The translations under genes and the position numbers were made by a program. This document shows positions 6,888-38,850 of a DNA stretch of 64,000 nt, one piece after another. A model generated the notes under the pieces. The model saw nothing but the letters and a program-made list of their open reading frames with translations. It had not been told where the DNA came from and ran no database searches. Position 1 is the stretch's first letter. Each line of letters begins with the position of its first letter. The stretch is from Antedon mediterranea. Its lineage: Eukaryota > Animalia > Echinodermata. The DNA lies in NCBI RefSeq assembly GCF_964355755.1, contig NC_092672.1, positions 10,106,001 through 10,170,000 of the forward strand. Direction: 5' to 3'.

Positions 6888-7007
6888 TTAGGCTTCATAA
6901 TGACCAGGAAAGAAGAACAGTTTTTTGGTAAGCATGGTAACAGGTGCTGGCATCTGTTTGTTACGGCCAGAAGAAGATTCAAATGCACGAGCTACTTTGT
7001 TGTTCAC
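6888..7007 (-). CDS. CASP9: Caspase last coding exon: VNNKVARAFESSSGRNKQMPAPVTMLTKKLFFFPGHYEA*
   Basis: KQMP...LTKKLFF C-terminal caspase motif; tttatag|GTG acceptor; TAA at 6890-6888. Confidence 0.95.
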   Translation of the reverse strand: MNNKVARAFESSSGRNKQMPAPVTMLTKKLFFFPGHYEA

Positions 7008-10000
7008 CTATAAATAAAAAATCATATAATTTACAATTTAAGAAAACACATGATGGTAAATTGATACAATAATTATGTATCTTGGTACCATGGTTCCAGT
7101 ACAGCATAATATAGAAAATACAGTCATCAAAAAACTGTTTAAACAAGAAATATTTCATACAAAAAACGCTGCTCGACATTTTAAAATTAATCATTGTTCT
7201 TTCTTCAGATATATTTATGATTAATTATTAAAAAGATGACCTTTAATCGCAAAAATACATACAAATCAAAGATACTTCTTTAATTATAAATTACATGCCC
7301 ATTTAAAAATGGTCAATTTTGAACTTTAATGTGCTGTGTGTGTGTGACTTCAACCTGTAGGCATGCAACTGAATATTTCTCTAGAAACGACGTGACTTCA
7401 CGGCGGTACAAGTGAGGAAATTCTTCACACAATCTGTTGATTCGCGTCAATCAATCAAAGGACGAGAATCCAAAATCATTCAACCGTGAGCCCTCACAGA
7501 CTCTCTTTTCCCAGACGTTTTTTTTTGGGTCCAGCAGCTGGGATCTATATTATAGTCGAGTTTACAAAGTCGCAAAACTGGCAGCCTTAGATACTATAAC
7601 TGCTGCTTGCTTTAGCTTCTGAATGAGTAGTCCTCATGGGTTGTAGCTGGCTAGAGCAGCAGCGTGAAAACAGAAGAGTGAAATAATACAGCTGTATTGA
7701 GACTTATCTTTTTAATCGTATCTTAAATATTGTTAGTTTTATTTGATAATCTGCAAGATGGGTTACTCATTTTCTAAAGCTATTTGAAACTGAAAATAAC
7801 ACCAGAAGTAATAAACAACCCAATAAATAATAATTGAACAGTAAGGCATAACCATTACAGAGTAATAAAATTTATGACTTTGCCTAAAGAAAGTTGAAAG
7901 CTTTAAAGACAGTAATTTAAAATCTCATTTCCCTGATGATGTAAAGCCTCCTTCCGTTTTACACACAAACTGATAATTCACGTATCTATTTTGATAAATG
8001 TTTTTCTTTTCAGAACCTAAGAAGCTCTCGTCGTTTCAAGCACAAAGGTCAACCCTGCAAGAAAATATACTCTAAAAGAAGCTTTAAATCACATACAGTA
8101 CTATTTTCTTAAAATGTGAAGAAAATCCTGCCTGTAGGTTTGATTTGATGTGGATATTTCATTACACCTGTTTAGTGCGGTTAACAAAAGAAACCAGACT
8201 TCTTGCGGGGATCGAGGTTCTTATTTATGTAGAGAAAAATTATGGACAAGTGTCCTAATTTATGTACGGAAGCCCGTTCGGGCCACAAGTTAACTGTATT
8301 TTAAAAGCTGTTATCTGGCGGCCGCCACTTAATTATCTGGCGGCCGCCACTTAATTATTAGTACATGTCCCGTCACGTGACATGTACGTGCATTGGATCA
8401 GAGGCGATGTTGCATGCAATAAAAGGCAAGCAATGCAATCATGATTATGTACGGAAGCCCGTTCGGGCCACAAGTTAACTATATTTTAAAAGCTGTTAAT
8501 TAATTGGCGGATAATTAAGTGGCGGCCGGCAGATAATTAAGTGGCGGCCGGCAGATAATTAAGTGGCGGCCGGCAGATAATTAAGTGGCGGCCGGCAGAT
8601 AATTAAGTGGCGGCCGCCAGATAATTAAGTGGCGGCCGCCAGATAACAGCTTTTAAAATATAGTTAACTTGTGGCCGAACAGGCTTCCGTATTTATGCAA
8701 CCTAGTTACAGTAAATATAATTTAATGGTATTGACCATGTTTTAAATGCTGTATAAATTATTAATTGATAAACATGCAAAGTATCAATGTTAGTAGTACA
8801 TTACTGTACTTGAACTAAATTAATGGTATGCAAAACTAATAAATGAAAGTCCTTAAAGACTGATACTGTTAAGTGCTACTAAATTTTTTCATCACTGAAA
8901 ACATTATAAATGGAATATATTGTAATTTAGTAAAATATTCATAAACTTCATAATATACTATACCTCACCTACTGATATGTAATTCATGATTATATAGAAT
9001 TTCTCTAAATTACATTGTATTACACAGTTCCATAAAAAAATTGTAAATTTAGATTTTCAAAACAGAGACTAGGAAAACACAATTGGTCTAATGCAGGCCC
9101 GTAGCCAGGGGGGGTTTTTATGGTTCGGGCGAACCCCCAACCCCCCCCCCCTTTACAGCGAACCCCCCTTAACCGACTGCGAACCCCCATCCCCGACATG
9201 CCCAATACCTCACCCTCATCTCCAAAAATCCTCCAAATACGTGCCCCACAGTACAAAAAGTTGTTTGTAAATTGAAAAATTTGTAAACTTGTTCGTGAAC
9301 CTTCTTCTCTGTATGAGCGTCAACTAGCGATACGTGTCTGTAAATTTCTAAAAGCTGCAAATGAATTGCCGATTTTAACCTGAAAAATAAATGTTTGGTC
9401 CCTGCATGTAACATGATATTGACGCGTCTCATAGCAAACTGGGGCACGAACGATTCGTACAAAGGACTCCGCCAGACAACTACGTACCTATAATTGTTTA
9501 GATCACTGGCAGTCAGGCAGCATGCATAAAGTATATAGCCTTCCGACGTACATCAGTATTTATGTGTGACTATGAAGTATAATGTATCAGGGCCGTAGCC
9601 AGGATCTGTCAAGGGGGGGTTCGGACACTAAATATTTGGGTCAACCCCTGGGGGTGGGGCCTGATGCGAAGCGAATTTTGTTAAATGACACCCCTAGATG
9701 GCCGGAAAAGACACTCTCGTGCAGCATGCTACCGATGAGCAAAAAGATCGTACTTTTTTCCTCCTTCTCAAACACGTCGATAATTTAAAGGACGATAACT
9801 ATTTGTTGGCGTATGTTAGATGCGCGTGCTCTGTGTGCGGAACCGCCGATTGTTTGATCATTTACTCCGTATTTTGTTTTGCGTTCAAGTTCAATGCGAA
9901 CGTACATCTAGGAGCAGCCCCGAAAAAAGCACACTTGTTGAAGGCAAATGCTATTTGCTAGCTCTATCTATAATATTTATTTACAGCAATTTGTTGAGGA

Positions 10001-13000
10001 ATATAAATATGTAAATAGGTGATATTGATACATTTTAGTACGTATCGGCTGGTGGTCTGGAAAAAAATAATCGGATGCCATAATGTGAACTACAGTACTT
10101 GATACCATAGATATTATAGTGTAAAATATTAATATTCACTATAATCCTCTATGATACATTATACTTCATAGTCACACATAAATACTGATGTACGTCGGAA
10201 GGCTATATATTTTATGCATGCTGCCTGACTGCCAGTGATCTAAACAATTATAGGTACGCAGTTGTCTGGCGGTGTCCTTTGTACGAATCGTTCGTGCCCC
10301 AGTTCGCTATGAGACGCGTCAATATCATGTTACATGCAGGAACCAAACATTTATTTTTCAGGTTAAAATCGGCAATTCATTTGCAGCTTTTAGAAATTTA
10401 CAGACACGTATCGCTAGTTGACGCTCATACAGAGAAGAAGGTTCACGAACAAGTTTACGAATTTTTCAATTTACAAACAACTTTTTGTACTGTGGGGCAC
10501 GCATTTGGAGGATTTTTGGAGATGAGGGCGAGGTATTGGGCATGTCGGGGATGGGGGTTCGCAGTCGGTTAAGGGGGGTTCGCTGTAAAGGGGGGATTCG
10601 CCCGAACCATAAAAACCCCCCCTGGCTACGGGCCTGTGTATCATAGAGGATTATAGTGAATATTAATATTTTACACTATAATATCTATGGTATCAAGTAG
10701 GCCTACTGCAGTTCACATTATGGCATCCGATTATTTTTTTCTAGACCACCAGCCGATACGTACTAAAATGTATCAATATCACCTATTTACATATTTATAT
10801 TCCTCAACAAATTGCTGTAAATAAATATTATAGATAGAGCTAGCAAATAGCATTTGCCTTCAACCAGTGTGCTTTTTTCGGGGCTGCTCCTAGATGTACG
10901 TTCGCATTGAACTTGAACGCAAAACAAAATACGGATTAAATGATCAAACAATCGGCGGTTCCGCACAGAGCACGCGCATCTAACATACGGCAACAAATAG
11001 TTATCGTCCTTTAAATTATCGACGTGTTTGAGAAGGAGGAAAAAAGTACGATCTTTTTGCTCATTGGTAGCATGCTGCACGAGAGTGTCTTTTCCGGCCA
11101 TCTAGGGTTGTCATTTAACAAAATTCGCATCGCATCAGGCCCCACCCCCAGGGGGGGGGGGGGTTGACCCAAATATTTAGTGTCCGAACCCCCCTTGACA
11201 GATCCTGGCTACAGCCCTGTAATGGGTCGGATATTGTACGTGGAAAAGTAATCCAAGTACAAGTCTTGGTTGATGTTAATGTTATTTTTTAACTCTCAAA
11301 GATTTCTTCAAATAATTCATTTATAAGTCATATGATCCAAGAAAATAAAGGATATTTTGTCATAAGTAGATTGATAGGAAGTCATCTAACATCTGTGAGG
11401 TTGATGTACAGATAAACTCAGAAGAAGAATTTATAAATCATACCTTAAATGGCAAACTGTATTATTATATAACTGTGTACAATCTCATTTTCAGAAAAAT
11501 AATCTAAGAACTGTGAGGTTGATGAACAGATAAACTCAAATGACAGGTCAAATTTATATCATATCATAAAAGGCAAAACAAACTATAAGTTTGATAAAAA
11601 AAATAATAATTTAAAAACTAAGAATTCTCTAGTAGCAAAACAACTTCTGATTATTTTTTTAATATAATAATCCAGAGGAAATGTTACCTCTGATTTTTAA
11701 ATCTAGTGTCTGAAATTAAACAATACATCATTAAATATATTTTTTTAGACTTAAAGTTGAAATTTGTTTTTTTATTTGTGTTATTGCATCTACTGTATAA
11801 ATTCAAGCTAAACTGTGAGGGGGGGGGGGGGTTGGAGGTTGGCGAGTATAGGGATCGCAAGTGTACTGGGAAGTTTTTAAGCAACACGTCCTAGGGTGCC
11901 GCGGGTATCTTCATCTTTGTTCCACAATCAACAAATTGATTATTACAGAACTAGGAGGTCTAGTAGAAGTTGCTGTGTGAAATAGTACACCGGGGCAACC
12001 CCTACTCGTCTTGAAAGATGTACTATAGGTTCTTTAAAGTGCATATGAGCATTTTGTGTAGACTATATACCTAACTGGCCACCCTACCACATAATGCAGA
12101 GGCTTAGTACAATGAGCTCCTAACAGCTCATTCCCCTACGTTCAGAGAACACGGGACTTACCTTTACCTTTACATACCTACAGTTTATAGTTCTTATCTG
12201 AGAAAACTTGTTCTACCACCAGAACCATGAAGCAAGTGAGGCTTGAAACCTTGCCAATATTATGGCTATGTACGGTTCCACTATCTTAACCGCTAGGCCA
12301 CTTATTCGTAATACTAATAATACTAGAATATAATATATTCTAAAAGCGTGGAATATATTGTAGATTGGGTGGGGAACTAGTGACCTACTTGTGAAATACC
12401 AATAAATAAGTTACTTAAAGGACAACTTGACCGAGGACCATATTTTAACAACATATTAGGGATGTACATATGACTTCAGAACCATCGCGAGATTAAGGAT
12501 AACCCCGCACGCGCTCACCGTACAGCCGTCGCCATAAATTCCTGTGACCTCACAGGTGCATCGCAACATTTACGTCATGAGTTTTCTGGCAAAGTCTGGC
12601 AAATTGCGAACATTTCTAGTAAACACACTTTGTAAAGAACTAGACTCATTAAGTGAATTTTGCAATGTAACTGTGACGTCACTGCAATTGACAGCGACTT
12701 TTGTTTGCAATTCCCAAACCTCTAAAGTCTGAATATTACCAACACTTATTACAACCTTACATCAAGATTGTCCTTTACTGTTACAATTGATATATATAAA
12801 CTATTTTGGTAATGCCAAGTCAAACGTGTCTCTACAAATGCCAGTGCGTTTCATTTATAGTTACTATTATTTTATCAATATCTAAACTTTTTGACAACCT
12901 GGGAATATTTTGCTTGCTACAGTTCGATTATTTGAAATGCTGACAAAGAGATTTCAACAGATCAGCTACAATCAAGTAAATAATCTGTAAAAATATATAA

Positions 13001-16000: not shown

Positions 16001-19000
16001 TCAAGTGTTTCTCTTAGACTAAGTGTGAATGGTGAATACGGCTACAGCTGCACAGTTGACCATGCTGATAGCCTTATGTGTTTTATTACATCCACTCACC
16101 TCCACGGCAGGCTTGGATGAAAAAAAGCTTTGGTTTACCAGTCAGGGATGGGCAACTGTCTCCAGTAAAACAATTCTGAATATCATCTACTTTGATGAGC
16201 CGTTCGTCCACACTGTACAAGGCACCATTCACACCATGAGTGAGCACGGCAATGATGAAGCAATCATACCGAGAATGATTCATTGTGCTGTAATGCCTCA
16301 ATTTTTTATAAAAGTCCTAAAAAATATTAAATTTTGAATTGAATTTTAAAATCAAGTTTTCTTTCCATAAGATTTCAATGTAACTATAAATTTAAATTAG
16401 TTTAAGGATGTGCATTTAACTGTGTTCAACTGTGCATTGGCAAAAGTGTGGATTATCATAATGCATATGAATTGCATAGTGCATTATTAATGCATAATGT
16501 ATGATGTATTATTATAATTAAATACATAATGCATGATAAATAAATTTGTACTGTATAATGTGTACCGGTAATTAATGCATAATTCATGATTTTCAGGAAG
16601 CACACAATTGATTTATATTATTCAGTAGTTCAAAGACATACATTGTACTTGAATTCTAAATCCTTTTTTGTTCAGTTGTCATACGTGTACCTAGCACCCA
16701 GTGAGAGTATGTATTTCAAGTTTACAAATTATAGGTGCTGTATGAGGTAGGAAGTGATGGTGTGTTTCTATGTAGCAGTGGTAATTGGTGTCGATGTGCA
16801 TTACTGGAAATAGAAGAATAATCCAGCAAAATTGCACCATTAAACCATATTTTGTTTCCCTTCTCTAATTCATTCAAATAGTTTGTATATTTCAAGTGGT
16901 CAAAATATAATTCAGGACAAACCAATGTTCATTTTGGTAGCTTTTCAAAACTGATAACAAATTTATATTCAAGAATTGGTTTTAATTTCAAATTTTAAAT
17001 ATTTGAAATAAATAAAAGTGAAGAGGTAAATTATTTATTGTCTTCAAGCTTAACTGGAACCAGATTACAACGAATATTAAATAAAGTAGGTAGGATCACA
17101 GGATCTAGACATAATTTGGATGACATTTGCAACAAAATCATAAGAAATAAGGCTATGAAAATATGCGACGACTCAAACCACCCTTTAAATAAACATTATG
17201 TTAAAATGAGATCAAAAAGACTAAATGTGCTGAGATCGTGCAATAGTAGGGTTATGCGATATTTTAATTCTTTTGTTCCGTATTCTATTAGACTGTTAAA
17301 TGATTTTGCATAATTTTTGAAATTTTTTATGTATTGCAGCTTTTTATTTTTTATTTAGTTAATTGTAGTCTTATGTTCATACTAAGTACATTGTTAAATA
17401 ATATATAGTATTTTTAAATATTGTAATTAATTTTTTTTATATGAAACGTTTTTATATATTTTTGTACAATTTTGTGAAAAGCACTCAAAATATTTTCCTA
17501 TGTGGACGAAATAAAGTTATCAAATTTGTATCAGATCCTCTAGGGTCTCACAGCAGTCGGCAGTGCAACGCCTACCAATATCCGGAGAGATCAGGAAACA
17601 ATATTCTACTCTTTTTGAATAGTGTACAGAGTTCTTCAACATGCCCTATGTGTACACGGGACCAATGGCTTTACGTCCCATCTAAAGGACGAGGCAATGA
17701 CAGTAAAGCATTTTGCCTAAGGATACAATCAGTATGGTACAGATGGACATGGACACATGCTTGTCCGATTGTGTTACTATCATTACACCATCACTCTCCG
17801 AACTATGGTGATCTAACAAGAAGCTGTGTTTCAACCAATATGGCCGTTAAATACTCACACTATATGTTGAATTTGTAAGATTTTCAACCTCAAATGCTAA
17901 TTGAGTAAACAAACATTCAAGCTGTCGAGCATCCACATCGGTTCCTTTTCGTAACGGCATCGATCGGAAATTACGATTGTTGACTATCAGCGCTTTCCCT
18001 CTAGGCTTTGATTTGATTGTGTAGTTCTGATGAAAAAAAAAAATTAAAAAAATCTCAGTAGTAGCATTTATAGTACAACAATTATAGCAGCTTTCTTAAT
18101 AAAGATAGTACGGTTTCTTGGGTATGACCATACTGTAGGGAGCCCTCTATTGTTTGTTGTAAAAAGAGAGAATAACATGGACATCAAACAAGACTGTTGT
18201 AACTGAGCCTACAATGTAGGGTTGTTTAAATAATGATTCAGTTCCAAAATCACGGCTACATAGTGTAGATTATCTTTGAATGTACTGTCCATTTGTAGGC
18301 CTAGCAGAAAATATTTTAAATCCATCAATTTACATTAGAATTTCTATGCTTTCAATTTAATGATATTAATTTATATATGATAAACTTTTCCTTTTCCTGG
18401 ATTTAGAGTATGAACAACTGATCGAAATACTGCAATCTTAAATGATATTGTTCGTAAAGGGCCAAAGGCATTCCGTGCATTAGCAGAGTCGTTGTTTGCT
18501 ACTGAGATGTACCATCTAGCTACACTTTTAATACCAGACCTTACTGAAGATACATTGTACGATTTAAGCTATTATGAATTTGAAAATGATACCAAAGCAC
18601 CTATGCAACCAAGTGTTGGAGACAAGCCACCTGTGCAGCAGAGTGTTGCAGAAGGCAGTGGAGATTTTAATCCCACACGCAAGTTTCCGACTGGATTTAC
18701 ATTTTAATTAATATTTTAATTGTTTATAAACTTTTACAACTACTGTTGAGGGTGCTGCATTCACAGCTGGACTCTATACATAATGTGAACACATCCTTGT
18801 ACAGTATGTATTCTATAATTTCACTGAACCAAATCTAAGAATAGTGTGAACGCAGCTAATACATATACACTACCTGTGGACTATCGGTCATTTCACTTGT
18901 ATAATTTCCTTTACTCATTTTCATTTGTAGAACTTCATCTGCAGTTTTCTGTGGCCAAGCTAAATATAGGGTGAAGAGTAATGGAAATATGTATTACAAA

Positions 19001-21389
19001 AAAGTAATAAATTTGTGTTTTTTGTTTACATGTATAATAAGCAAATTATCAAAAATATGATTTAGTATAATTAAATGAATTGTTATAATTGGAACTTGCA
19101 CTCCTTGACCATGGTCTTGAATGTAAAGTTCTGTCTACACTATACTAACTAGTTTGACAAAAAAAATGTGATGTTCCCAAATGTGGTAATGATATGACAT
19201 TAAATCATGTCCATATATGGGCACATCACATGTTTTTGTCACATAAAGTTCAGGGCCGTAGCCAGGATCTGTCAAGGGGGGGTTCGCACACTAAGTATTT
19301 TGGTCACCCCCACCCCCATACCTACCCCCCCCCCCCTGGGGTGGGGCCTGAGGCGAAGCAAATTTTGTTAAATGACACCCCTAGATGGCCGGAAAATACA
19401 CTCTCATGCAGCATGCTACCAATGAGCAAAACGATCGTACTTGGACTCGTGGACTATTTAAACGATAACATTTGTTGCCGTATGTTAGATGCGCGTGCTC
19501 TGTGCGGAACCGCCGATTTTTTTATCATTTACTCGATATTTTGTTTTGCGTTCAAGTTCAATGATAACGTACGTCTAGGAGAAGCCCCGAAAAAAGCACA
19601 CTGGGTGAAGGCAAATGCAATTCTTATTATAGCTCTATCAATAATATTTATTTACAGCAATTTGTTGAGGAAATTAAATATGCCAATGTAAATAGGTGAT
19701 ATTGATACATTTGAGTACGTATTGGCTGGTGGTCTAGAAAAAAATAATCGGATGCCATAATGTGAACTACAGTACATGATACCATAGATATTATAGTGTA
19801 AAATATTAATATTCACTATAATCCTCTATGATACATTATACTTCATAGCCACACATAAATACTGATGTATGTCGGAAGGCTATATACTTTATGCATGCTG
19901 CCTGACCGCCAGTGATCTAAACAATTGGTACGCAGTTGTCTGGCGGTGTTCTTTGTACGAATCGTTCGTCCCCCAGCTCGCTGTGAGACGCGTCAATATC
20001 ATGTTACATGCAGGGACCAAACATTTATTTTTCAGGTTAAAATCGGCAATTCATTTGCAACTCTTAGAAATTTACAGACTATATCGCTCGAAGTACGCTC
20101 ATACAGGGAAGAAGGTACTGTATGAGTTATTCCGAACGAGTTTACGAATTTTTTAATTTACGAACAACTTTTTGTACTGTGGGGCACGTATTTGGACGAT
20201 TTTCGGAGATGAGGGTGAGGTATTGGGCATGTCGGGGATGGGGGTTCGCAGTCGGTTAAGGGGGGTTCGCTGTAAAGGGGGGGTTCGCCCGAACCATAAA
20301 AACCCCCCCTGGCTACGGGCCTGAAGTTTGATAGTGTAGACAAGGTTTAAGGCAAGTTTTCTATATAGGATGATTTATAAATGCAGGTCCAGTGTACACC
20401 TGTGTACCTTTAGGAAGTAAGGGGTTGCCCTAATGTAGTGATGCTGTCGCAGTAGACAAATGAGCGCTGTTTGAGGCAGCTGAACACAAATTGGACCTTT
20501 TAGCTATAAGATGGCATTTAGTCCAGTTGCACTTTGAGACAGTGTTATCTATCATTTTTATCAATCAATGTTATTATTATCATCTACATTACCCTCTGAG
20601 ACTTGCGTCGGAAACTTGCGTGTGGGATTAAAATCTCCACTGCCTTCTGCAACACTCTGCTGCACAGGTGGCTTGTCTCCAACACTTGGTTGCATAGGTG
20701 CTTTGGTATCATTTTCAAATTCATAATAGCTTAAATCGTACAATGTATCTTCAGTAAGGTCTGGTATTAAAAGTGTAGCTAGATGGTACACCTCAGTAGC
20801 AAATAACGACTCTGCTAATGCACGGAATGCCTTTGGCCCTTTACGAACAATATCATTTAAGATTGCAGTATTTCGATCAGTTGTTCCATTCATACTCTAT
20901 AACAACAAATTATGAGAAAATATTACAATTTGACTTGTTGTTTGTTTGTTTTTATTATATATTTTACATTCAATTATTTTATAAAATATTTTGAAAACAT
21001 AATACTTTTAATAGTCATGCTATGCCTAGTATCCAGATTATTATGTTGGCATAAATGGTTTTTATACAATCAATTTTTCTCATTTGTCCAATTTTAAAGA
21101 TTGTAGAAAAGTAAAAAAAAAGTGTTAATTTTCTAAAACAATATTGTAGTACAGTTTACTGTATGTTTAGTTTCATTATAAGAGTAACCAGTATTATATT
21201 TCAATATAAGAACACGTATCTTTTGTATTATTATTGGGTTATAAAAACAATCCTACAAACCCGGTATTTTTCATCTTCAGATGTATTAAAAATTTGTCTA
21301 GCCACTAATTCGTTCAAGATATCCATGGGCATATCGCTAACTAATGTTATACGATTCGTTCGCAGAATCTTCTTGTGTGCAGCTTCCAT
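6888..21389 (-). CDS. CASP9: CARD-containing initiator caspase, caspase-9-like, ~453 aa. Eight coding exons: 21389-21261, 20896-20593, 18959-18874, 18026-17859, 16316-16100, 14698-14471, 13126-13017, 7007-6888
   Basis: All junctions are GT-AG and phase-consistent; the exons sum to 1362 nt ending in TAA. N-terminal CARD (MEAAHKKILRTNRITLV...RKGPKAFRALAESL). Large subunit: KPRGKALIVNN, RKGTDVD, catalytic His in VLTHG, Cys in GKPKLFFIQACRG. Linker DETDAIGS. Small subunit: [33 protein letters not shown]...KQMP...LTKKLFF. Caspase-9 rather than caspase-2 is judged from motif resemblance only. Confidence 0.92.
8265..8691. mobile_element. MITE/foldback element with long TIRs and internal 21-bp GGCGGCCG-containing tandem repeats
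   Basis: TACGGAAGCCCGTTCGGGCCACAAGTTAAC...GTTAACTTGTGGCCGAACAGGCTTCCGTA; flanking direct repeat TTTATG; left end duplicated at ~8449. Confidence 0.85.
9094..11219 (-). mobile_element. Non-autonomous TIR DNA transposon (~1.07 kb family), outer copy, interrupted by a second copy
   Basis: Termini CAGGCCCGTAGCCAGG...CCTGGCTACAGCCCTG; 5-bp TSD TAATG (9089-9093, 11220-11224). Confidence 0.92.
9588..10636 (+). mobile_element. Same family, inner copy in opposite orientation
   Basis: CAGGGCCGTAGCCAGG...CCTGGCTACGGGCCTG; 5-bp TSD TGTAT (9583-9587, 10637-10641). Confidence 0.92.
11880..12305 (-). mobile_element. SINE-like remnant (Nin/Deu-domain-like)
   Basis: GGTTCTTTAAAGTGC...CACGGGAC...GTTTATAGTTCTTATCTGAGAAAACT...CCGCTAGGCCA pattern (recognition only). 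Confidence 0.4.
13017..13126 (-). CDS. CASP9: Caspase exon 8: [37 protein letters not shown]
   Basis: Substrate-binding S-W-R and GSWF motifs; ttgttag acceptor; ATG|GTAAG donor. Confidence 0.95.
13565..13735. repeat. Long palindrome, probably a MITE
   Basis: AATAATGAATGTTT...GAATGATGAAAGGTTATATCAAC / GTTGATATAACCTTTCATCATTC...AAACATTCATTATT. Confidence 0.7.
13905..14460 (-). repeat. Degenerate tandem copies of the 3' end of caspase exon 7 in intron 7
   Basis: Repeated variants of cagttgcatagg-ctaaaagcatg-tcactgtggct-aggcagcttaga. One copy translates SKLPSHRNHAFNCAYAAVP versus exon [17 protein letters not shown]. Confidence 0.75.
14471..14698 (-). CDS. CASP9: Caspase exon 7: intersubunit linker and start of small subunit
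   Basis: ORF 14454..14696 (MFDQGVEATDG...[28 protein letters not shown]); CCAG|GTAAG donor. Confidence 0.93.
16100..16316 (-). CDS. CASP9: Caspase exon 6: catalytic His (LTHG) and Cys (QACRG)
   Basis: ORF 16086..16301; tttttag|GAC acceptor; G|GTGAGT donor. Confidence 0.96.
17050..17520 (+). mobile_element. LINE 3' fragment (L2/Rex1-like)
   Basis: RLQRILNKVGRI...DDSNHPLN...RYFNSFVPYSIRLLN C-terminal motif, then T-rich UTR and AATAAA. Confidence 0.7.
17525..17765 (-). mobile_element. SINE-like remnant
   Basis: GGCTTTACGTCCCATCTAAAGGACGAGGCAA...GCCTAAGGATAC resembles common invertebrate SINE cores (recognition only). Confidence 0.4.
17859..18026 (-). CDS. CASP9: Caspase exon 5: start of large subunit, NYTIKSKPRGKALIVNNRNFRSMPLRKGTDVDARQL...
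   Basis: Canonical caspase PRG-x-ALI-NN and R-x-GT-x-x-D motifs; poly-T acceptor; GTGAGT donor. Confidence 0.93.
18406..18690 (+). pseudogene. Inverted, near-identical copy of caspase exon 3 inside caspase intron 4
   Basis: Matches the reverse complement of ~20608-20897 with a 5-nt deletion and few substitutions; flanked by direct repeat CTGGATTTA (18397-18405 and 18691-18699). Confidence 0.9.
18874..18959 (-). CDS. CASP9: Caspase exon 4: prodomain linker (A)WPQKTADEVLQMKMSKGNYTSEMTDSPQ
   Basis: 86-nt exon (tttag|CT ... CAG|GTAGTG) that restores frame between exons 3 and 5. Confidence 0.8.
19251..20323 (+). mobile_element. Third copy of the 5-bp-TSD family, nested in a small palindromic MITE (~19124-20350)
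   Basis: Same TIRs; TSD AAGTT (19246-19250, 20324-20328); host ends TGTCTACACTAT / ATAGTGTAGACA. Confidence 0.9.
20593..20896 (-). CDS. CASP9: Caspase exon 3: CARD C-terminal half plus linker
   Basis: Within ORF 20561..20893; acceptor ttatag|AGT; donor G|GTAATG; phase 1. Confidence 0.88.
21261..21389 (-). CDS. CASP9: Caspase coding exon 1 (gene exon 2): CARD N-terminal half, MEAAHKKILRTNRITLVSDMPMDILNELVARQIFNTSEDEKYR
   Basis: ATG at 21389; acceptor AG at 21404-21403; donor GTTTGT from 21260; phase 0. Confidence 0.88.
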
Positions 21390-27556: not shown

Positions 27557-27597
27557 TTGCACTGATGAAGGGCTAGTGTTGCCCGAAAGCTCTGCTA
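27557..27597 (+). ncRNA. Minimal hammerhead ribozyme motif, copy 2
   Basis: GCA-CTGATGA-A-GGGC tagtgtt GCCC-GAAA-GCTC-TGC, with a perfect stem II. Confidence 0.65.
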
Positions 27598-28524: not shown

Positions 28525-28620
28525 ATCTGTGAAAATGAGAAAAAGTCGCCCCAACAGAGACTCGAACTCGGACCGCCTGCTTGATATGCAGATGTCCTAA
28601 CCATTAGACCACTGGGGCTT
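28525..28620 (-). mobile_element. tRNA-derived (Asp-like) SINE head or tRNA pseudogene, within a ~370-bp direct duplication (28305-28500 / 28670-28900)
   Basis: Minus strand GCCCCAGTGGTCTAATGGTTAGGACATCTGCATATCAAGCAGGCGGTCCGAGTTCGAGTCTCTGTTGGGGCG with A and B boxes; decayed relatives at ~31550-31615 and ~59085-59155. Confidence 0.65.
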
Positions 28621-29127
28621 TCATGGTATTGTTCAAACTCGATTGGATAGCGACTCTTTAACATTCTCGGCATGGTACGGCGGAACAGCACTAGTCCTCA
28701 GTTGTACACACGCGCACCAGAGATCAAATTGATACGCCCTCATCTTTCAGTATTTTTATTCACGAGGCGGGATCTCCGAAGAGATACTTTTATATATATA
28801 AACACATTAGGCAATGAACATTAATTCGAAACCGCCCAGTGATATACTGAAATTTAATTAATTAATTAATTAATTTGAAATGATACAGATGAGGAAATCT
28901 ATATTATATATATATCTTTTGTAACAAATAATGAAAGGTCTGGTTATTTCTTGCATTTTTAATAAAATACAAAAACTATGCAATTTGTTCATGATTAATA
29001 TGAAAAGATATATATTCTATGATTTAAAAGCAGTTGAGTGACACAAGGCAATGCCTGTATAGCACAACTTAAAATTACTACAGCATTGTTCAACACATTT
29101 CACCTTGGTATCACCTTTATCCGATAC

Positions 29128-32100
29128 TTAATGACGAGCGATGGTGATTGTTGTTACTTTATTCTGCTGGTCTGCTGTTATGTTGCACTCGACTGGAAAT
29201 AAACTTCTGAATGCATCGACACCTAGTGACAATGATTTAAACACTTCATGATCACAAATGAGTTGTTTGCATTCCTTTGTTAATAACACCATATGTTCAC
29301 TGTCGAAGAAAATTCAAAATAGTAAAGTATGAGAACTTTTGAAATAATTTAAACAAGGGTAATGTTTACATTATGAGCGGTCTGAACGGTTTCATTTAAA
29401 AAGTTTAGAAAATTGGTATATTAGAACTCTAGTATTAAAAGTTATCACTAACACCCGTCTGAAACCGCAAAATGGGATGTCACCTAAACCTGCTCAGTAA
29501 AACAATTGGCTACAATCAAATCAATGTTTTCTCTATGTTTATACTATGTCTATGTATGTTGTGAATATGCCCTTTCAAAAGAAAGTGGACAGGTAAATAG
29601 AGAAGGAGCAGGGTGTGGATAAGAAGTTGGTAAGAAGGATAAGAGGTTTATTGAATGATAAACAAATCTGCAATTGTAATATGAATACAGATCATATTTT
29701 TTGTGGTGTTGTTTCAGACTATTTAGTTTACAGAATTAAACTTACACTGTGGGATCAATACCACAGATGATTTGTTTCACAACTTTAATGCTTTTGTCAG
29801 GAGGTTGAGACAGAATCTGTAGCAAAACAAAATTATTATCAATATGTTAAAGCAACATGTACTTCCGGAGCCTGGGTGTAATTACTTTGGGAGACAAGTA
29901 TGTAACTGGAATGTAGCCTAGTTTTAATTATGTTAGTTTAGGTTGTAATTATAATGTAGGTAGTCTAGGATGTACGGTAATTATAATGTAGGTAGTCTAG
30001 GATGTAATTATAATGTAGGTAGTCTAGGATGTACGGTAATTATAATGTAGGTAGTCTAGGATGTAATTATAATGTAGGTAGTCTAGGATGTAATTATAAT
30101 GTAGGTAGTCTAGGATGTAATGTAATTATGTTAGTCTAGGATGTAATTATAATGTAGGTAGTCTAGGATGTAATTATAATGAAGGTAGTCTAGGATGTAA
30201 TGTAATTATGTTAGTCTGGGATGTAATTATAATGTAGGTAGTCTAGGATGTACGGTAATTATAATGTAGGTAGTCTAGGATGTAATTATAATGTAGGTAG
30301 TCTAGGATGTAATGTAATTATGTTAGTCTGGGATGTAATTATAATGTAGGTAGTCTAGGATGTAATGTAATTATGTTAGTCTATTATTAGTTAATTATTA
30401 TAATTAATAAAGAATAGACTAGGTTGTAATTATAATGTAGCCTAGGATCTAATAATATATTATATAGATTAACAAGAACATATTGTAAAGCATCGGGTGA
30501 AATCCTGAATATCAAATAATTAATTTGATACAATAAAGATTACTCTAGTAGCTAGATCAACTATGCACTTTGAGGTCCAGAGAATTTGACTTCAGAAATT
30601 GGTTTAGGATGGTCAAACAATCATTTTTGGCTTGGTTACACAATATTCAGTCTAATGGCACATTTTAGTCAACAATGACTGGAAATGCCATTTCTGACAT
30701 TTGATTCACAACCCAAGGCATGTACAGTATGTATCTCCGTAACTACTGGTCGTAGACACTTCAATTTGCTCTTAAATTGTTTGAAATATACATTTTGTTA
30801 TTTGTTACACATTTTGAAAAATGTTATAAAAGGTCAAAGGGTCAGGGTTATATGAACAAATATAAATAGGTACTTGTATCTTGGCAACCACTGGTCGCAG
30901 CAAGTTAATTTTGGTCTCAAAATGTTCAGAAGGCAGACAATTCAGTCTAATGGGACATTTTAGTCAAAAATAATCAGAAATGCAATTTCTGACCTTTGAC
31001 CCACATACTAGGGCATCTTCATATCTATGTAAGTACTGTTCGTAGAAACTTAAATGTTGTATCAAATTGTTCGAAATATATATATTTAGATTCATTCTAA
31101 TAGAAAATTTGGTTAAATGATGACCAGAAATACTATTAATTACTAATGTTTCAAACAAAAAACATATCTGTATACAACTTATCCTTGGACAGTAATGTTA
31201 TGTAATAACTTATGCTTAAAAATTGTTTCATTATAGGATTTAAAACAAATTTTTGTAATTGTATTTTTGCTTATAATAATGCTAGAAAGTATTGTTGACC
31301 CCCGAGGACGATCAAACATTTTGATAGAAACATCGAGCCCAAGAAGTAACTTACCGAATTCATCCTAATAAACGCCTATTGGTGTTTGGTCTTATAACCT
31401 TTCAACCTGACCTTTTGACCTTTCACCACATTTTCAAAATGTGTAACAAGCCAAAAATGATTGTTTGACCATGCTAAACCAATTTCTGAAGTCAAATTCT
31501 CTTGACCTCAAAGCTCATACAAAAGTTTATCTACAGTAACTACTAGAGTAGATGAGGAAATCTGTGAGAACGAGCAAAAGCCGCCTCAACCAAGATTCAA
31601 ACTTGGAACTTTCTGCTTTAATAATAATTTGAAGAAGTTACCTCTAGGCGTGTAAGATTCGTTGTTTTTAATTCTGGTTTTTGTTTAAACATATCCACTT
31701 CGACATTAGTGAAGAGGAATGTTGCACCATCATGCTCTTCAGTAATTTCATCAGCCTTTTCACCCCAGAGTTTTAATTTAATTGTTGAATTTGTGTTTTT
31801 TAAAACCATATCACGGCGTTGCCAAGGGGTAATTTTTTCTCCAATTTCTTTTTCTCCGATCTGTTTTAAAAAAAAACAAAAAAACATCAGTATAACAGAA
31901 GGTTTGTTAATAGTCTTTTGGAAATATAATATATAGCACCCTCTATAATTTTTCGAAAAATGTTAAGATATTTGCAATTCATTAAAAATATTTTTTAGCA
32001 CAACATGCACCCTCTATGTGTGTTGATATCGTCTTGAAGTTTCAATTTCAACAACCCTGTGAGGAATTAGATATCACATGTTATAATCATTTCGACATTG

Positions 32101-35100
32101 TATTATTAGCGATAATGCCGCAAAAACATCCTCCAGTTACCAAATTTTACCCACCCCAATAGGACAATATCGTGTTCATCGTAATATGCAAAAAAAAATT
32201 CTGAAATAATAAAAAACCCAAAACTTTGATTTATGCGAACTTTTTTATAAACGATAAAATAATTCAAATTGTTTTGCTTTTATTTATTATATATTATTAT
32301 ATATTTACCGTACTGACGCGGGTATAAGCCCATACTCGGGTATAAGCCCACCCCCGACTTTTGACTAATTTTCATGAAAAATGAGGCACTCGGGTATAAG
32401 CCCACCCATTAATTCGAAGATCTACAGTGTGTGTCGTAATACATATTTTTGTATTTGGCGACGTCCATACACCGAATACACCTACCTTTGATCATAACCA
32501 AGCTAGGCTAATATACGCTAGGCCATAAGAGGCCTAGCGGTCCTGTTTTGTTTACACTCCATCGCGGTCGAAGATCGCTTCACACACGACGCTACATACA
32601 AGTCGCCAAAACGGAAAACCACTATTTGGTATCGGCTGCCATAAACAAGCTTATTAAATTTCTTTGGTACATTTCTATTTAACGAACATTGTATACTTGC
32701 TTTTCTGCTTGATAAATTCTTGTTCAATTGATGTTTAAAATAAGATATTCTACGATAAATTACATGAACTATAAGCTTAATTAATAATCGTGTATTTAGA
32801 GGCAACGTCGTACACGTGAGGGCGCTCGCTTGCATGGTGGAAATACACAGTGTACATGTGCAGTTTTTGACGATCTGCATTTTTGGATCCTCGGGTATAA
32901 GCCCACCCCCCAAACTTGACGTGATTTCATGTTCGAGGGGGGTGAGCTTATACCCGCGTCAGTACGGTATATATTCCATAAGAATTTCATATAAGAAAAC
33001 ATAGTTTTAATCATTGAATTGACAAAAAACAGGAATTCCAAAATAGCTGTAATGACGTCACATGACATCATTAATATGCAAATTACCTTTTTTTACTCCC
33101 AACTGTAGACCAACCTTTTGCCCACCACACACCACAAAAATAATTACAAAATTATCTCATTTAGTATCTTTTATGACAGTCAGGGTTCGAAAATCACCCT
33201 AACAATTTGCAAGTATATTTTGTTTTTTTTCTAGTTACAAATTTAATAGTTATAATGTTTGCTGGTTACTATTAATGTATGGTTGGATATTGATATGAAA
33301 TAGTTTGAATGATTTTGGAAAACTGATTGAAAACAAAATAATATTGTAACTTACCATTGTAACTTTTCCTTGGATAGTGACTCGTCTTCTTTTGGGGCTT
33401 CTCACTGCCTCCTCAATGCTCACCTCATCTGGAGTAAAAAATTTGTTCAATTTTTCTTGTGGGATTTCAAAATCATTGTTTCCCCCTTGAAACACCTGTA
33501 AAGTAAAAAAAAGTAGTAATGATTTGAATACAAATTGGTTCAGTAATTTTGGGTGTCTAAATACCAGAGGTAAAGTTCAACTGCACAGTATGTGAATGTG
33601 GAGTTTGACTGCCAGAGGATTTAAGAGAAATCAATAATTAAATGGTAATCATTTACCTTGGATGTTCCTTTTTTAATTATCAATTCCTGTGTGTTTTCTT
33701 TGAAACGTAGTGTTGCATTTGTTACTATTTTGTAGTCATCTTTTGTAATCTTTTTAACAAATGGAACGTTTTTTGCTGATACTATTCCTCGTAAATATTC
33801 TGATTTGTCATTAAAGGCATGAAATTCCCAGTAGGTTCCATGGTCAGCAGGAGGTGTTAAAACATATATGTATATCATTTCCATATACTAAAAGAAAGAA
33901 TTGATCGTTATCAAATCATGTGATCAAATGAACACTGTATCACATTGTACATTGGGTGTGTAGTGTGTAGGAACATTTTTAAGTTAATTTATTTGATCAG
34001 TCACAGAGTCACAGTGCCACATGTTACAGTTACATATTTAAAAAAAAAGTAGAGTGACTCTACAATATGACACGCTCTTCAGGATAGTATTTCATCTGTA
34101 TATTATTATAAGCTGGGTTAAAAACATTCTGTTAGGGTATGTTCAGATCCATGGAGTTATGCTTTCGTATCGCAAGCAATGTCACATTATAATTATCATA
34201 ACTGTAACAGCAAACTAATGCTTTCTTTAGAAACTGAAGAAGTCCAATTTGGGCGAGCATCTGGTATGCAGGTTGGAGGTCAAAATCGTTGATGCATGAC
34301 TTTCATATTGTAAGCATCGTTCGCTAATCTTCTGCCTTGAGATGATGAACGAAAGATCAGTGTTGTAAGAGTAAAGTAATCTTTTCCTGGTTCAAACCTA
34401 TGGAGTTGTACAATATGAAAGCACAACTCCGTAGGTCTCAACAGGCCCTTAGTGTTGGAATCCAGATGAAATTTAAAATTGATCAGATCTCACCCTTGAT
34501 ACATGAATGTGTGTTATGCATTATGAATATTTTGAAGAAAATATAAAAGCCCATGGGCTATTCAAAGGGGGACGTTTGTAACTACAGCAATATGCCCATT
34601 TTTTATAAAAGCCACTAGTACTTAAGGGACACTTTTCCTATACTCACTTTGTCTTGTTGAATTGCAGTGTTTGAAGAAACTAAAGATAAGAGAGAAAAAA
34701 AGTAATGGAAAAATACTGCAATAAAAACATTTTCAAAACAATATCATGAGTAACAATAACAATTTTTAAAATCTGTATGGCCAAACGATAAAAGTATGCA
34801 TTTTGTCAGTTCACCACTGAAGTCCATTTAGAATTAAAGTATGGAGAATACACATTCTTAGCAACTGAAGTTATAGTACTGTACTGTCAAAGACTATCAG
34901 AAAAAAATCGTTGATTGCTTTCTTCTGAACTTATTTCACAGCATACAACAACAACCAAGCCACGGACTGGCCAAACAGCTGAACCAACATAATGAAGCAA
35001 ATATATGAGAGTCTATGGTTGAGGCAGAATTAAGATTTCTTTTTAGGTAAAAATTGTGATAAACCACTGAAATTATCAAGCAAAACTTCATCACAGCATG

Positions 35101-35752
35101 GGTCCCTTAATAACGCACATAGCATAATGTCACTGTGTCGTGATCGTATCCATACACAGTACTGTAGGTAGTTTTTAATACAGTATATTTTGATTACATT
35201 GCATTCACTAAGAGTAACGCATAATTTTGTCTTTTCCCTTAAACAGCAAGTGTGTAGTACACTACATGATCCACTAACTTTTATGTTGGTTCAATAGAGT
35301 TTGCTATGTTTTTCGGAGGTTTGCAGGGTTTAGCAATTAATTTTTAACCAAAAAATGATGTTTTACTCCAAAAATAAGTAGTTAACAAAAACAATTTAAC
35401 ATTAAAAAAAAAATTGAAATATTAGGTGTGTAGTACACTACACGATTCACTAGCTTTTATGTTGGTTCGATGGGGTTTGCTATGTTTTTTCGGAGGTTTG
35501 CTGTGTTTAGCAATACCCCCAGTAAGTTTTGCCAACTTCAAATTATTCTTCAGATTATAGTACAGTTAGAAGTAGTTAACAGGATTACAATGGCAGAAAA
35601 TTCAAAAGAACAACAGTCTTTCTAGATAAATCAAAAAAATTAATAACAGAGCTATGATATACATTACCATCAGCCAAGACTTGTCTTGTGGCATTCCAAT
35701 TTCTACCCCGCTTCTGCAGCACCTTGCTTGTCTCCAACTGGCTGGCTTTCAT
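29128..35752 (-). CDS. Tandem OB-fold nucleic-acid-binding protein (RPA/SSB-like, HIN-200-like), ~316 aa. Exons 35752-35668, 34679-34648, 33887-33657, 33495-33355, 31860-31642, 29816-29746, 29299-29128
   Basis: All junctions are GT-AG with consistent phases (1,0,0,0,0,2); 951 nt, no internal stop. OB signature RRVTIQGKVTMIGE...RRDMVLKNTNSTIKLKLWGEKA...GATFLFTNVEVDMFKQKPELKTTNLTRLE. The two short 5' exons are less certain; an alternative start is Met 33884. Confidence 0.75.
29925..30450. repeat. Minisatellite (TAGGATGTAATTATAATGTAGGTAGTC and shorter variants) in OB-gene intron
   Basis: Directly visible tandem array. Confidence 0.95.
30541..31550. mobile_element. ~1-kb TIR element inserted in a SINE remnant
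   Basis: TACTCTAGTAG...GAGAATTTGACTTCAGAAATTGGTTTAG is inverted at 31440-31550. Confidence 0.7.
32306..32969. mobile_element. Tc1/mariner/pogo-type MITE
   Basis: TACCGTACTGACGCGGGTATAAGC...GCTTATACCCGCGTCAGTACGGTA; TA ends; repeated GGGTATAAGCCCA motifs. Confidence 0.85.
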
Positions 35753-35885
35753 TACTGAAATCATAAAAACTTAACATATAATTTATCTTCAGTGAGGTCT
35801 GATATCTATATAAAGTATGGTTAATTCTGACATAGGCGAGCACAATGCAAAAACCTCGGTACAAATCTGCGCCTTGGATACCTAC

Positions 35886-36210
35886 CTTATCTATCTCAGA
35901 TGTACCGCGAAACGTAGATTTGATAACATTAATTTTCACATCGACGCTATTGTTCCATATTTCTATCTTAGGAAGATATTATAAAGGGTTTTATAGGAAA
36001 TTTTCTGATTTCAATCGGTAAATTTTAACTCTACGCGCAGTAGAAGTAATTTCCGGGTTAACGGTCAGGTGTGTCAATCACCTTGCAAGTTCCCTGCATG
36101 GTTGGTGTCAACCAGGGAGTTGTAAAACAACTCCCTGTTTCAACTAAGTTGGTGCTTGGTGGCGATAGCCATTTTGGTTTTTTGTTTATTTTCGGACCGC
36201 GCGTGTGAAG
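35886..36210 (-). promoter_or_regulatory. Putative non-coding first exon and promoter of the OB-fold gene
   Basis: Donor AAG|GTAGGT at 35886/35885; locally CpG-richer sequence with TTCCGG (ETS-like) and GCCATTTT (YY1-like) motifs. Confidence 0.35.
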
Positions 36211-37093
36211 GTATAGTACTGTAGTACATAAAGATCAAATTAAATATATTCATAAAAAATTGGAGTATTATTGTGGGAAATAATTATATAAAATTACATC
36301 GAGAGAATTGATGATAAGAGCTTTTGTTTAAGATCGAATGAAACCCCGATAGCCGAGTTGTTGAGTAAGCTGCCAGGACTCATGGATGGATACTTCTGCC
36401 CATATTGCAAGCCGTCTAAAAGGTCTTCCTTCTTAGGCCAAAACGACTCACTGTGTTGCGGAATAATATGTATTAACTATACCGATTAGAATGGTATTTA
36501 TTTGAATAAACGCCCGGAACACCTCCCCAATAAAACATCAATTAAAATAATTATCACCACTCTCCTCCCCCCCCCCCCCTCCAATACCATCTAATTAACG
36601 CCCATCCCAATTTATACACACAATATTGTATTATATTTATAACACAATTATACTATTTTTTAGTAGATTTCATCGGACTGTTATCTACAATTTACCAAGC
36701 ATTTGTTATTCTTTTTTACCACTTTTCATATCTACAATAAACACTATACGTAAAACGCTATTAATCATCTAAAACACTGTGAAACAGGTTAGTGAGTAGG
36801 TTTAGTTTTACGAATATCAAAAGCATTTAAATAATGGTAACCGATCGAAATCGTCCAGGCCAGAATGTCCTTCTAAAACTTTTTACCAGAGTCACTATCA
36901 TTCCGAGAACCATGGTCTACACTTCCTAGAGGGGGAGCAAGCGAAGCGAGCTCACCCTCTAGTTAATATAAAGTATAGCTAAATGCTGAGACCCAGTAAA
37001 AACAAATGATTGCCGTTTGGTGGCAGCTAAAGGATTGATGCAACGAAATATAATCCACAGCGATTTAAGATGGTGTTTATTATCTATTATTAT

Positions 37094-37863
37094 CTATAAC
37101 ACCCTGAGACTTCTTGTTGGAAACTTGCCTTCTGCAACACTCTGCTGCACAGGTGGCTTGTCTCCAACACTTGATTGTTTGGTATCATTTTCAAATTCAT
37201 AATAGCTTAAATCGTACAATGTATCTTCAGTAAGGTCTGGTATTAAAATTGTAGCTAAATGGTGCGCCTCTGCAAATAATGACTCAGCTAGTGCACGGAA
37301 TGCCTTTGGCCCTTTATGAATAATATTATTTAAGATTGCTGTATTTCGAGCAGTTGTTCCATTCAGACCCTATAAAAAAAGAAATTATGAGAAAAATATT
37401 ACAATTTGACTTTGGAAATTCATCTGTGCACAAGAGATGATTTCTGTTGTTTTTTTATAACATTTGTTAATATTTTGAAAACATAAAAGACATTCTATGC
37501 CTAGTATCCAGATTAATATGTTGGCATAAATGGTTTTTATAAAATCAATTTTTCTCATTTTTCCAATTTTAAAGATTGTAGCAAAGGAAAAAAAGTGGTA
37601 ATTTCCTAAATTAATTTATAATTTTGTAGTAAAATACTGTATGTTTAGTTTAATTACAAGGTAACCAGTATTATATTTCAATTATTTAAGAACCTGTACA
37701 TCTTTTGTATTATTGGGTTAACAATCCTACAAACCAAGAATTTTTCTTGTTCAGATGGCTTAAAAATTTGTCTGGTCACTAATTCGTTCAAGACATCAAT
37801 GTGCATATCGTTAATTAATGACATACGATTCTTTCGCAGAATCTTCTTGTGTTTAGCTTCCAT
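37094..37863 (-). CDS. CARD-only paralogue of the caspase, ~134 aa (exons 37863-37735 and 37369-37094); possible 5' half of a CARD-OB fusion
   Basis: MEAKHKKILRKNRMSLINDMHIDVLNELVTRQIFKPSEQEKFL|GLNGTTARNTAILNNIIHKGPKAFRALAESLF...KFPTRSLRVL*. Splice sites of the first coding intron are preserved; deletions of 3, 9 and 24 nt are all in frame; no catalytic exons follow. Confidence 0.75.
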
Positions 37864-38679
37864 GATTCAGTAAAATCTGTAAATAAATAATTTAATTCTA
37901 ATTATTATTAATTCACTGAATATTTTAACAAGTTTTATTAGAATGAGTTAACTTTTTGGGAACCTTATTCAATCAATATAATAATATTACCATACAGTTA
38001 GTGTTAATATAGTATAATGATGACTTATGACTTAAAAATACAATAAAAATAATACTGTACAGTATGTGTATAGATTATTCACAATTTGATCACTTAAATT
38101 AAAGAAACACAACAATATTTAAACTCTTCTTCCTACACTTACAGTATGTATTGATCAGTAACTATATTCAGTCAGTATACAGTACAGTACCTAACACCTA
38201 TAATGCCTTTCATTAATAATTATTTAAAAAGTACAAGTCAGTCACGATGAAATCAACTTTGGATGGAGCACTGCTTTTAGATACCGCCTAGGCCTAGATA
38301 CTGTAGGCCTAGGCCTAGTACACGATTATTTTTTTTATACTTTTCTTTTAATTTACTTTTTTTTTAAACCATTTGTTGTAACTGGAATCATTTTAAAAGC
38401 ATATTAGTAATTACAGTAAGTACTGCAAATGTAATCTAGGCCTAGGCCTAGTCCTACCGGCCAATCACTCTTCTCGGCTCGGGGTTAAGCTATGCCTACT
38501 AGCCTACACTAACTAAGTACAGAGGCTAGGCCTAGGCCTACTACTACTACCAACAGGGCCCAGCCCAGACAGGGGTGTCACGAAACCTAAGATCACGAAA
38601 GCTAAGACCCAAGAACTAAGATTACAAATAAACACTATAAATCTAGTATAGACTAATGTATTGATAAAACAGCATTTAC

Positions 38680-38850
38680 CTGGACCAATTCTTTAAAAAG
38701 CAAGCAAATTAGATATAAATTCAACTACTGTATTTTAAAGGATATTTTCTGGCGCGGCTTTGTTGCTTTGTTGCTTTTTCCTTTTCTTTACTCCACTAAC
38801 AGCGCCACCAACCACTAACATTAGTCTTTATGGGACGTCAAAAGGGACAT
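38680..38850 (-). promoter_or_regulatory. Duplicated non-coding exon 1 and promoter of the CARD-only paralogue
   Basis: Homologous to 25694-25860; donor CCAG|GTAAAT intact; GACGTCA site. Confidence 0.5.

Follow-up and report, generated by a model that had tools for sequence, protein, structure and literature searches.

A predicted CARD and OB-fold chimera beside a CARD caspase in the crinoid Antedon mediterranea, a candidate AIM2-like adaptor

Could an animal far from the mammals assemble, next to one of its own caspases, a gene built like AIM2? The question is raised by a stretch of the genome of the crinoid Antedon mediterranea (NC_092672.1, 10,106,001-10,170,000; hereafter the window, 64,000 nt, numbered along the forward strand), which is AT-rich (27-41% GC per 2 kb, zero N). 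The first-pass annotation described three intact, co-oriented units here, namely a CARD-only gene, a gene with tandem OB folds and a CARD-caspase. All three do lie on the minus strand, but the first two are probably one chimeric gene, to judge from the sequence: upstream of the caspase, copies of caspase exons 1-3 and five OB exons join in frame, by predicted splicing, into a 411-amino-acid CARD-OB-OB-beta protein, with no stop in any of the eight exons. Two proteins of the window, P0001 (OB gene) and P0002 (caspase), are present in the protein collection as Antedon mediterranea.

The splice sites on which this prediction rests differ from those of the parent. The parental GT donor of exon 2 has decayed in the copy, and a predicted GC donor (37128), which arose through a 24-nt deletion, matches 8 of 9 consensus positions in the phase of the lost GT donor; it is the sole such site among the 238 GC dinucleotides in 29-38 kb. 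The mini-exon that follows (34679-34648) is copied from caspase exon 3, is a net 9 nt shorter than its parent where the two align, and keeps the phase-1 acceptor. None of the 10 acceptors scored has a longer pyrimidine tract, and only 2 acceptors between 37090 and 33890, this one included, are strong; the new GT donor of the mini-exon (8 of 9 consensus positions) has phase 0, as OB exon 1 requires. An optional 87-nt in-frame cassette (35754-35668) would yield a 440-amino-acid form. The OB exons, from 33887 to 29128, hold an intact open reading frame (ORF) of 276 amino acids from Met 33884, and the last three of them constitute the NCBI model P0001 (154 amino acids). We think it somewhat more likely than not that a spliced CARD-OB mRNA exists, and it probably coexists with a CARD-only isoform: read-through of exon 2 reaches a stop at 37096-37094, giving a 134-amino-acid form, with AATAAA at 37081.

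The first-pass claim that the CARD directly duplicates the prodomain of the caspase is borne out by the copies of exons 1 and 2 (85% and 93% nucleotide identity). The same residue is found at 98 of 123 codons, and 63 of the 87 residues of the CARD domain are identical (72%). In a self-BLAST, ~20.6-30.5 kb is repeated at ~37.1-46.5 kb; the repeated unit comprises OB exons 4-5, intergenic DNA and caspase exons 1-2, and its non-coding blocks differ at 184 of 1,945 nt (9.5%). Scores of smaller exon copies were judged against 200 shuffled sequences, of which the maximum is quoted. By this measure both the mini-exon and an older half-copy of exon 2 (35810-35668), which has frameshifts, are supported (see the table); a second exon-2 remnant at 37095-36930 is not significant (43.5 against a shuffled maximum of 55). 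The CARD copy is followed by the exon-2 half-copy and then by the exon-3 copy before the OB exons begin, so the caspase-derived stretch can be said to end after exon 3.

A second version of the OB gene was found in run X2 (runs X2-X4 behave as DNA from one sample; the type of X1 is only guessed). With 66 differences in 339 nt, it aligns through OB exon 1 up to 34139 and not over the mini-exon, which is covered in X2 solely by a contig identical to the window. Since the other version aligns only that far, the copy in the window seems to have swapped its own 5′ end for caspase-derived DNA. This second version may represent either a divergent allele or a paralog located outside the window. The simplest history would be that a head-to-tail OB gene and caspase gene were duplicated together, with one break preceding OB exon 1 and another within caspase intron 3; the gene left in the middle would then consist of the caspase 5′ end and the OB coding exons. 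Gene conversion may make parts of the duplication appear younger than they are. Upstream, the orphan copy of OB exons 4-5 has a ratio of nonsynonymous to synonymous rates (dN/dS) of 0.41 (P 0.08), and matching exons 1-3 are absent from the window.

Some further observations concern these copies. Over 33657-33733, 25 of 77 exon bases differ between the window and the other OB version, 19 of them at codon positions 1-2 (non-coding duplicates, 9.5%), which suggests either that the amino acids of OB1 change fast or that gene conversion has passed over an older patch here. An X4 contig over the CARD copy (37234-37867) has 6 different letters and 3 gaps, and perhaps represents another allele or copy. 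OB intron 3 contains a minisatellite of 27/48/75 bp (29934-30433 and 45948-46630) that is common to both duplicate segments. Contig depth is 130-150 at the locus and 215-330 for many other single contigs, as might be seen if a single haplotype were present; since depth does not measure copy number, we infer nothing from it.

One alternative to a chimera is that the locus makes two products, a 134-amino-acid CARD-only decoy that tunes the caspase and a stand-alone OB protein of 276 amino acids, the mini-exon serving as an untranslated leader. In humans, caspase-1 is tuned by CARD-only proteins (COP1/CARD16, INCA/CARD17 and ICEBERG/CARD18), and the crinoid copy resembles them in being a tandem duplicate of caspase CARD exons beside the parent, with a read-through form that ends just after the CARD; it differs in keeping an in-frame route to a downstream OB gene, so that its product would be longer if the GC donor is used. 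The read-through ORF closes at 37094 with AATAAA 13 nt on, but this hexamer is common in DNA of 33% GC. Moreover, the OB start Met aligns with the starts of all five stand-alone homologs, GC donors are in general weaker than GT donors, and the NCBI model does not join the CARD and OB parts. Against this, chance would have to explain a GC donor in the matching phase (1 in 238), an exon-3 copy that has survived with the best acceptor and gained a phase-0 donor, and a lead-in of three bases that is open up to the Met; two products would also need an OB promoter inside a caspase-derived or repeat-filled stretch. We regard two products as unlikely.

The rate of frame-breaking indels was calibrated on 8 non-coding duplicate blocks (1,945 nt), which contain 55 indels, 46 of them frame-breaking. 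At this rate, ~4.8 frame-breaking indels would be expected on one branch in the 402 nt of caspase-derived coding sequence under neutrality, and 0 were found (P ~0.009, a rough figure); the probability of finding no stop there is 0.36. Over the whole coding sequence of 1,236 nt, 14.6 are expected, and neither a frameshift nor a stop was found.

Several points weigh against a working chimera. The reference for the indel test is AT-rich non-coding DNA, and the rate is probably too high, and a global alignment gives gaps of 2+1+6 rather than 3+6 in exon 3. Between the CARD copies, dN/dS is ~1.0 over 123 codons of a gapped alignment (exon 1, 3.05, P 0.36; exon 2, 0.46, P 0.13), so that purifying selection on the amino acids is not demonstrated; exon 1, which encodes helices 1-3, has 17.5 nonsynonymous and 1.5 synonymous changes, a difference that is not significant (P 0.36). 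The intact frame of exons 1-2 suits a CARD-only protein equally well, and as the OB gene keeps the family start Met, the OB part could be translated alone. The NCBI model at the locus covers only the last 154 amino acids. When CARD-copy exon 2 was compared with 119 candidate proteins of at least 161 amino acids, the caspase alone matched and no CARD+OB protein was found. If the second OB version in X2 is a divergent allele, then the chimera may be specific to one haplotype. Finally, the CARD-OB splice is itself a prediction. Contigs of X1 cover neither the CARD exons nor the mini-exon nor OB exon 1, which counts neither way. A 201-nt contig of X1 (depth 2.5) lies with 10 differences on 33358-33493, and its other 65 letters do not align to the intron; perhaps this contig derives from spliced RNA of the second OB version.

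These points bear on a further alternative, that the chimera is a neutral or decaying by-product of a tandem duplication through two head-to-tail genes, perhaps silent or confined to one haplotype, its AIM2 look being accidental. Such an origin would account for a dN/dS near 1 and for the lack of a CARD+OB protein among the 119 candidates, and it suits a locus rich in partial duplicates (the inverted and the decayed exon-2 copies and the orphan OB exons 4-5). Phase 0 being common to parental exon 3 and OB exon 1, the first join would have been in frame from the outset. It fits poorly with 1,236 nt free of frameshifts and stops at ~10% non-coding divergence, when the adjacent exon-derived copy at 35.7 kb did gain frameshifts, and with the replacement of both lost donors in the correct phase. 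We consider a by-product improbable, to about the same degree as two products, and return to the chimera and the origin of its OB part.

A phmmer search with P0001 against 1.84 billion representatives gave 27 matches at E ≤0.001, the named relatives being from sea cucumbers, the crinoid Anneissia, a ribbon worm and a priapulid; one match, P0013 (a 2,011-amino-acid surface protein), was dropped as a repeat artefact. Full-length members of the family have ~270-280 amino acids and are 23-31% identical to the window ORF. Against a profile made from six invertebrate homologs, to which it did not contribute, this ORF scores E 8e-61. A search with the family profile gave 9 proteins, 3 of which consist of a PYRIN domain and the OB module in medaka. 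These fusions, P0039-P0044 (Oryzias melastigma LOC112142445, KAF6740038.1), comprise five RefSeq isoforms and the model of a second assembly, and their OB-OB-beta module scores E 1e-29 to 3e-26 on an invertebrate-only profile. Like the crinoid chimera, they carry the module behind a death fold; the death fold is PYRIN rather than CARD, the proteins are ~18-20% identical, and they are annotated as full-length isoforms and uncharacterised. The medaka fusion almost surely arose separately from the crinoid one. That PYRIN is joined there to family members that score as HIN indicates that the OB module tolerates a death-fold partner.

Three sea-cucumber gene models (P0049, P0046 and P0038) pass from Helitron Rep/helicase sequence into the OB protein, with the join at the start Met of the latter; Helitron_like_N, PIF1 and DUF6570 are above the cut-off in P0049. 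These joins are known from protein models rather than from DNA, and we read them as two neighbouring genes of one element merged by gene callers. Because of them, the OB family is likely to be Helentron cargo. According to the available part of PMC11417382, HIN, Ssb-like_OB and DUF6570 are almost exclusive to the HLE2 group and are treated as captured genes; HIN is mentioned once in its main text, as far as that text was available. RPA-like genes are described in animal Helitrons and Helentrons in the accessible portions of PMC4683698 and PMC4067079.

The OB part of the chimera thus comes from a family joined to Rep/helicase, like the accessory genes of Helentrons (HLE2), but the copy in the window differs from these in being predicted to be spliced to CARD exons. 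A tblastn search with P0049, P0046 and the N-terminal part of P0038 matched OB exons only, with no Rep/helicase in the 64-kb window, which makes this OB copy an orphan or a domesticated gene. No GC-containing hairpin with a stem of at least 7 was found within 2 kb after either OB stop, there being no reference element for comparison. Among the outcomes that would refute it, the first-pass annotation named an OB gene that is high-copy transposon cargo without conserved linkage. Half of this applies: Helentron-like cargo it does appear to be, but its copy number appears low: only two X2 contigs cover OB exon 1 at 80% likeness, i.e., one other version, in a count from which older copies would escape and in which contigs drop variants. 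Searches of viral and metagenome contigs yielded no related loci. In the ESM Atlas, matches fell in unnamed clusters from chordates and molluscs and in archaeal clusters that resemble RPA, with no death-fold family among those shown.

How far is the OB module like HIN? The tandem OB folds of the first-pass annotation are present in an AlphaFold2 model of the homolog P0004 (32 sequences; predicted local distance difference test [pLDDT] 88, predicted template modelling score [pTM] 0.65), to which the window protein aligns end to end, but they are followed by a third beta domain. In a Foldseek search this model matched tandem-OB chains over residues 1-200, and HIN chains made up 23 of the best 30 rows, four of them identified as HIN by entry title; rank 1 by E-value was RPA. 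Single HIN chains superposed over both OBs with a root mean square deviation (RMSD) of ~6-7 Å and a target template modelling (TM) score of 0.50-0.59, compared with 13-23 Å for RPA, Teb1, LEF-3 and CST; in VIA, single HIN chains gave 5.4-5.8 Å over both OBs versus 11-14 Å. A nine-sequence profile run against the PDB returned HIN in 12 of 20 matches (best, 4e-4), among them the only matches to span both OBs, and no eukaryotic RPA70. Other profiles gave HIN in 12 of 23 matches and, without the fish sequences, in 5 of 8 (E 0.09-0.23).

Other results argue for caution here. The fold was modelled on a homolog that is 31% identical, the single-sequence fold of the 154-amino-acid P0001 being unusable (pLDDT 34). 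The VIA Z scores are tied (Teb1, 14.6/14.4; HIN, 14.3/14.2/13.8; RPA70, 13.5), an echinoderm-only profile gave HIN in 0 of 4 matches, and the top sequence match was always an archaeal SSB (on OB2). Pfam HIN was matched by 2 of 32 family members, both from medaka; at a cut-off of 22.7 bits, P0039 passes with 23.1 and P0040 just misses with 22.5. HIN (PF02760) had no match in P0001 or in single exons of the window, where OB1, split over two exons, was not scanned whole. P0001 itself had only chance-level matches among PDB sequences. A library of viral folds offered baculovirus LEF-3, which was no better than the PDB chains (RMSD 16-18 Å, TM ~0.3). On these models and profiles, HIN is the best tandem match in most tests, and descent is not proven.

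OB2 of the window protein keeps a Trp and a Phe aligned to W56 and F79 of SSB but not W75, i.e., two of the three aromatics that stack on bases of single-stranded DNA (ssDNA) according to the available part of PMC5027503. The isoelectric point of the OB pair is 8.6. The kept SSB-type aromatics suggest that the module binds ssDNA, as would be expected of rolling-circle cargo, rather than double-stranded DNA in the manner of AIM2.

With respect to known systems, the chimera shares with the PYHIN proteins (AIM2, IFI16, p202, p204) an N-terminal death fold, a linker and a tandem-OB module, and the OB1 start and inter-OB linker of p202 align with the OB family of the window. It differs in having a CARD copied from the adjacent caspase rather than a PYD, a third beta domain and SSB-type stacking aromatics, and in being a crinoid gene rather than part of the therian-mammal cluster; the available part of PMC3458909 reports no HIN outside marsupials and placentals. 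The AIM2-like architecture proposed at first is therefore upheld in outline, with CARD and OB exons predicted to form one in-frame gene, a HIN-like OB pair and a parallel in medaka PYRIN fusions, but the chimera is not a PYHIN member; as predicted, it would nonetheless work like one. A signalling module has gained a ligand-binding domain by fusion repeatedly, sometimes from a transposon, as in TRIMCyp and in plant NLRs with integrated domains. The crinoid case involves other domains and a DNA-level tandem duplication, and its function is predicted. In the open literature, as represented by titles and abstract openings and with subscription journals mostly outside, we found no invertebrate CARD-OB fusion, fish PYD-HIN protein or Helitron origin of HIN.

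The partner that the chimera would act on is intact. Running from 21389 to 6888 in eight minus-strand exons with canonical GT-AG ends, the caspase gene encodes 453 amino acids without a stop, letter for letter the same as P0002. That protein has everything that defines a CARD-prodomain caspase of the Peptidase C14 type: a CARD (Pfam, 1.6e-9), Peptidase_C14 (8e-66), the catalytic His-Gly and an intact QACRG (QACxG). Its introns contain repeats. The inverted exon-2 copy at 18404-18691 could form a 280-nt duplex with exon 2 in the pre-mRNA, or may be an assembly artefact; as exons 2 and 3 add up to 390 nt, skipping both would leave an in-frame caspase minus half its CARD. An element of ~1 kb is folded back in intron 7 (9094-11219), where its arms are 96-98% complementary, and has a single copy in intron 2 (19243-20323); intron 7 also has a palindromic 22-bp array (8260-8691).

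The reading that we prefer to its rivals, though with less than even confidence, is a duplication-born, AIM2-like adaptor from ssDNA to caspase. The tandem duplication would have set the upstream DNA and CARD exons 1-3 of the caspase before an intact, likely Helentron-derived OB gene. The chimera would most likely be transcribed from the duplicated caspase promoter and thus be co-expressed with the caspase. Its OB module would coat ssDNA and so cluster the CARDs, which, like CARDs binding each other under the homotypic death-fold rule, would recruit the neighbouring caspase (72%-identical CARD) for proximity activation. As the CARD was copied from that caspase, an adaptor of the ASC type would be unnecessary. 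We infer use of the GC-AG splice, ssDNA binding, CARD-CARD binding and activation rather than damping; the mechanism as a whole reaches beyond the structure of the DNA and is offered tentatively, as one that may well prove wrong. Least probable, in our opinion, is that the fusion is made and acts as a brake or transposon guard, binding ssDNA or Helentron intermediates and sequestering the caspase CARD much as HIN-only p202 antagonises AIM2: the mini-exon copy, open frame and donors would serve it equally, and the nonsynonymous changes in the helix 1-3 exon could alter filament surfaces, but their excess is not significant and a polymerising ligand-binding module with a death fold usually nucleates (as in AIM2, RIG-I and Apaf-1).

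Table. Positions of the predicted chimera, the caspase gene and related copies in the window
Feature	Position	Strand	Basis
Predicted chimera exon 1, duplicate of caspase exon 1	37735..37863	minus	85% nucleotide identity, no indel
Predicted chimera exon 2, duplicate of caspase exon 2; ends at predicted GC donor (37128)	37129..37369	minus	93% nucleotide identity
Predicted chimera exon 3, 32-nt copy of caspase exon 3	34648..34679	minus	local score 65.5 vs shuffled maximum 36 (200 shuffles)
OB exon 1 (family start Met 33884; OB fold 1)	33657..33887	minus	profile, exon mapping
OB exon 2 (inter-OB linker, start of OB fold 2)	33355..33495	minus	profile, exon mapping
OB exon 3 (OB fold 2; Trp, Phe aligned to SSB W56, F79)	31642..31860	minus	part of P0001
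OB exon 4	29746..29816	minus	part of P0001
OB exon 5 (third beta domain, stop codon)	29128..29299	minus	part of P0001
Interval with inferred duplication junction, caspase-derived / OB-gene-derived DNA	34140..34647		alignment with the other OB version of X2 ends at 34139
Decayed older copy, 3′ half of caspase exon 2, donor kept	35668..35810	minus	score 126.5 vs shuffled maximum 64.5
Upstream duplicate of OB exons 4-5	45826-45756, 44096-43955	minus	splice sites intact, stop 9 codons early
Caspase exon 1 (ATG, CARD first half)	21261..21389	minus	model = P0002; Pfam CARD
Caspase exon 2 (CARD second half and linker), phase-1 GT donor	20593..20896	minus	model = P0002
Caspase exon 3 (linker, phase 1 to 0), source of predicted chimera exon 3	18874..18959	minus	gene model, exon comparison
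Caspase exons 4-8	18026-17859, 16316-16100 (His-Gly, QACRG), 14698-14471, 13126-13017, 7007-6888	minus	model = P0002, Pfam
Inverted copy (98% identical) comprising most of caspase exon 2, within caspase intron 3	18404..18691	plus	self-comparison

Elsewhere, the ORFs of the window include 39007-40392, 40907-41522 and 23019-23540 (plus strand) and 47417-49042 (minus strand), which, by their motifs, look like pieces of non-LTR retrotransposon reverse transcriptase and ORF1. An element based on a 21-bp minisatellite occurs in three copies (51737-52238, 61862-62165 and 62503-62806), two of which face each other as a 366-nt inverted repeat.

AIM2-type sensors have been held to be mammal-only; in its available part, PMC3458909 finds no trace of HIN outside mammals. 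The medaka PYRIN fusions represent a PYHIN-like architecture outside mammals, and the crinoid locus links a HIN-like family of Helentron cargo, the medaka PYRIN fusion and a CARD fusion whose birth can be read base by base. A bolder proposal, which we hold to be rather unlikely, is that the HIN of AIM2 and IFI16 comes from an ssDNA-binding Helentron gene that has been coupled to death folds repeatedly (to PYD in therians, to PYD in medaka and to CARD in the crinoid), the present locus being such an assembly caught soon after the event. If expressed and active, the chimera would show that a single step can build a DNA-to-caspase alarm out of a transposon gene and a caspase of the host. Should the crinoid chimera prove to be dead, the link between the families would still offer a testable transposon origin for HIN.

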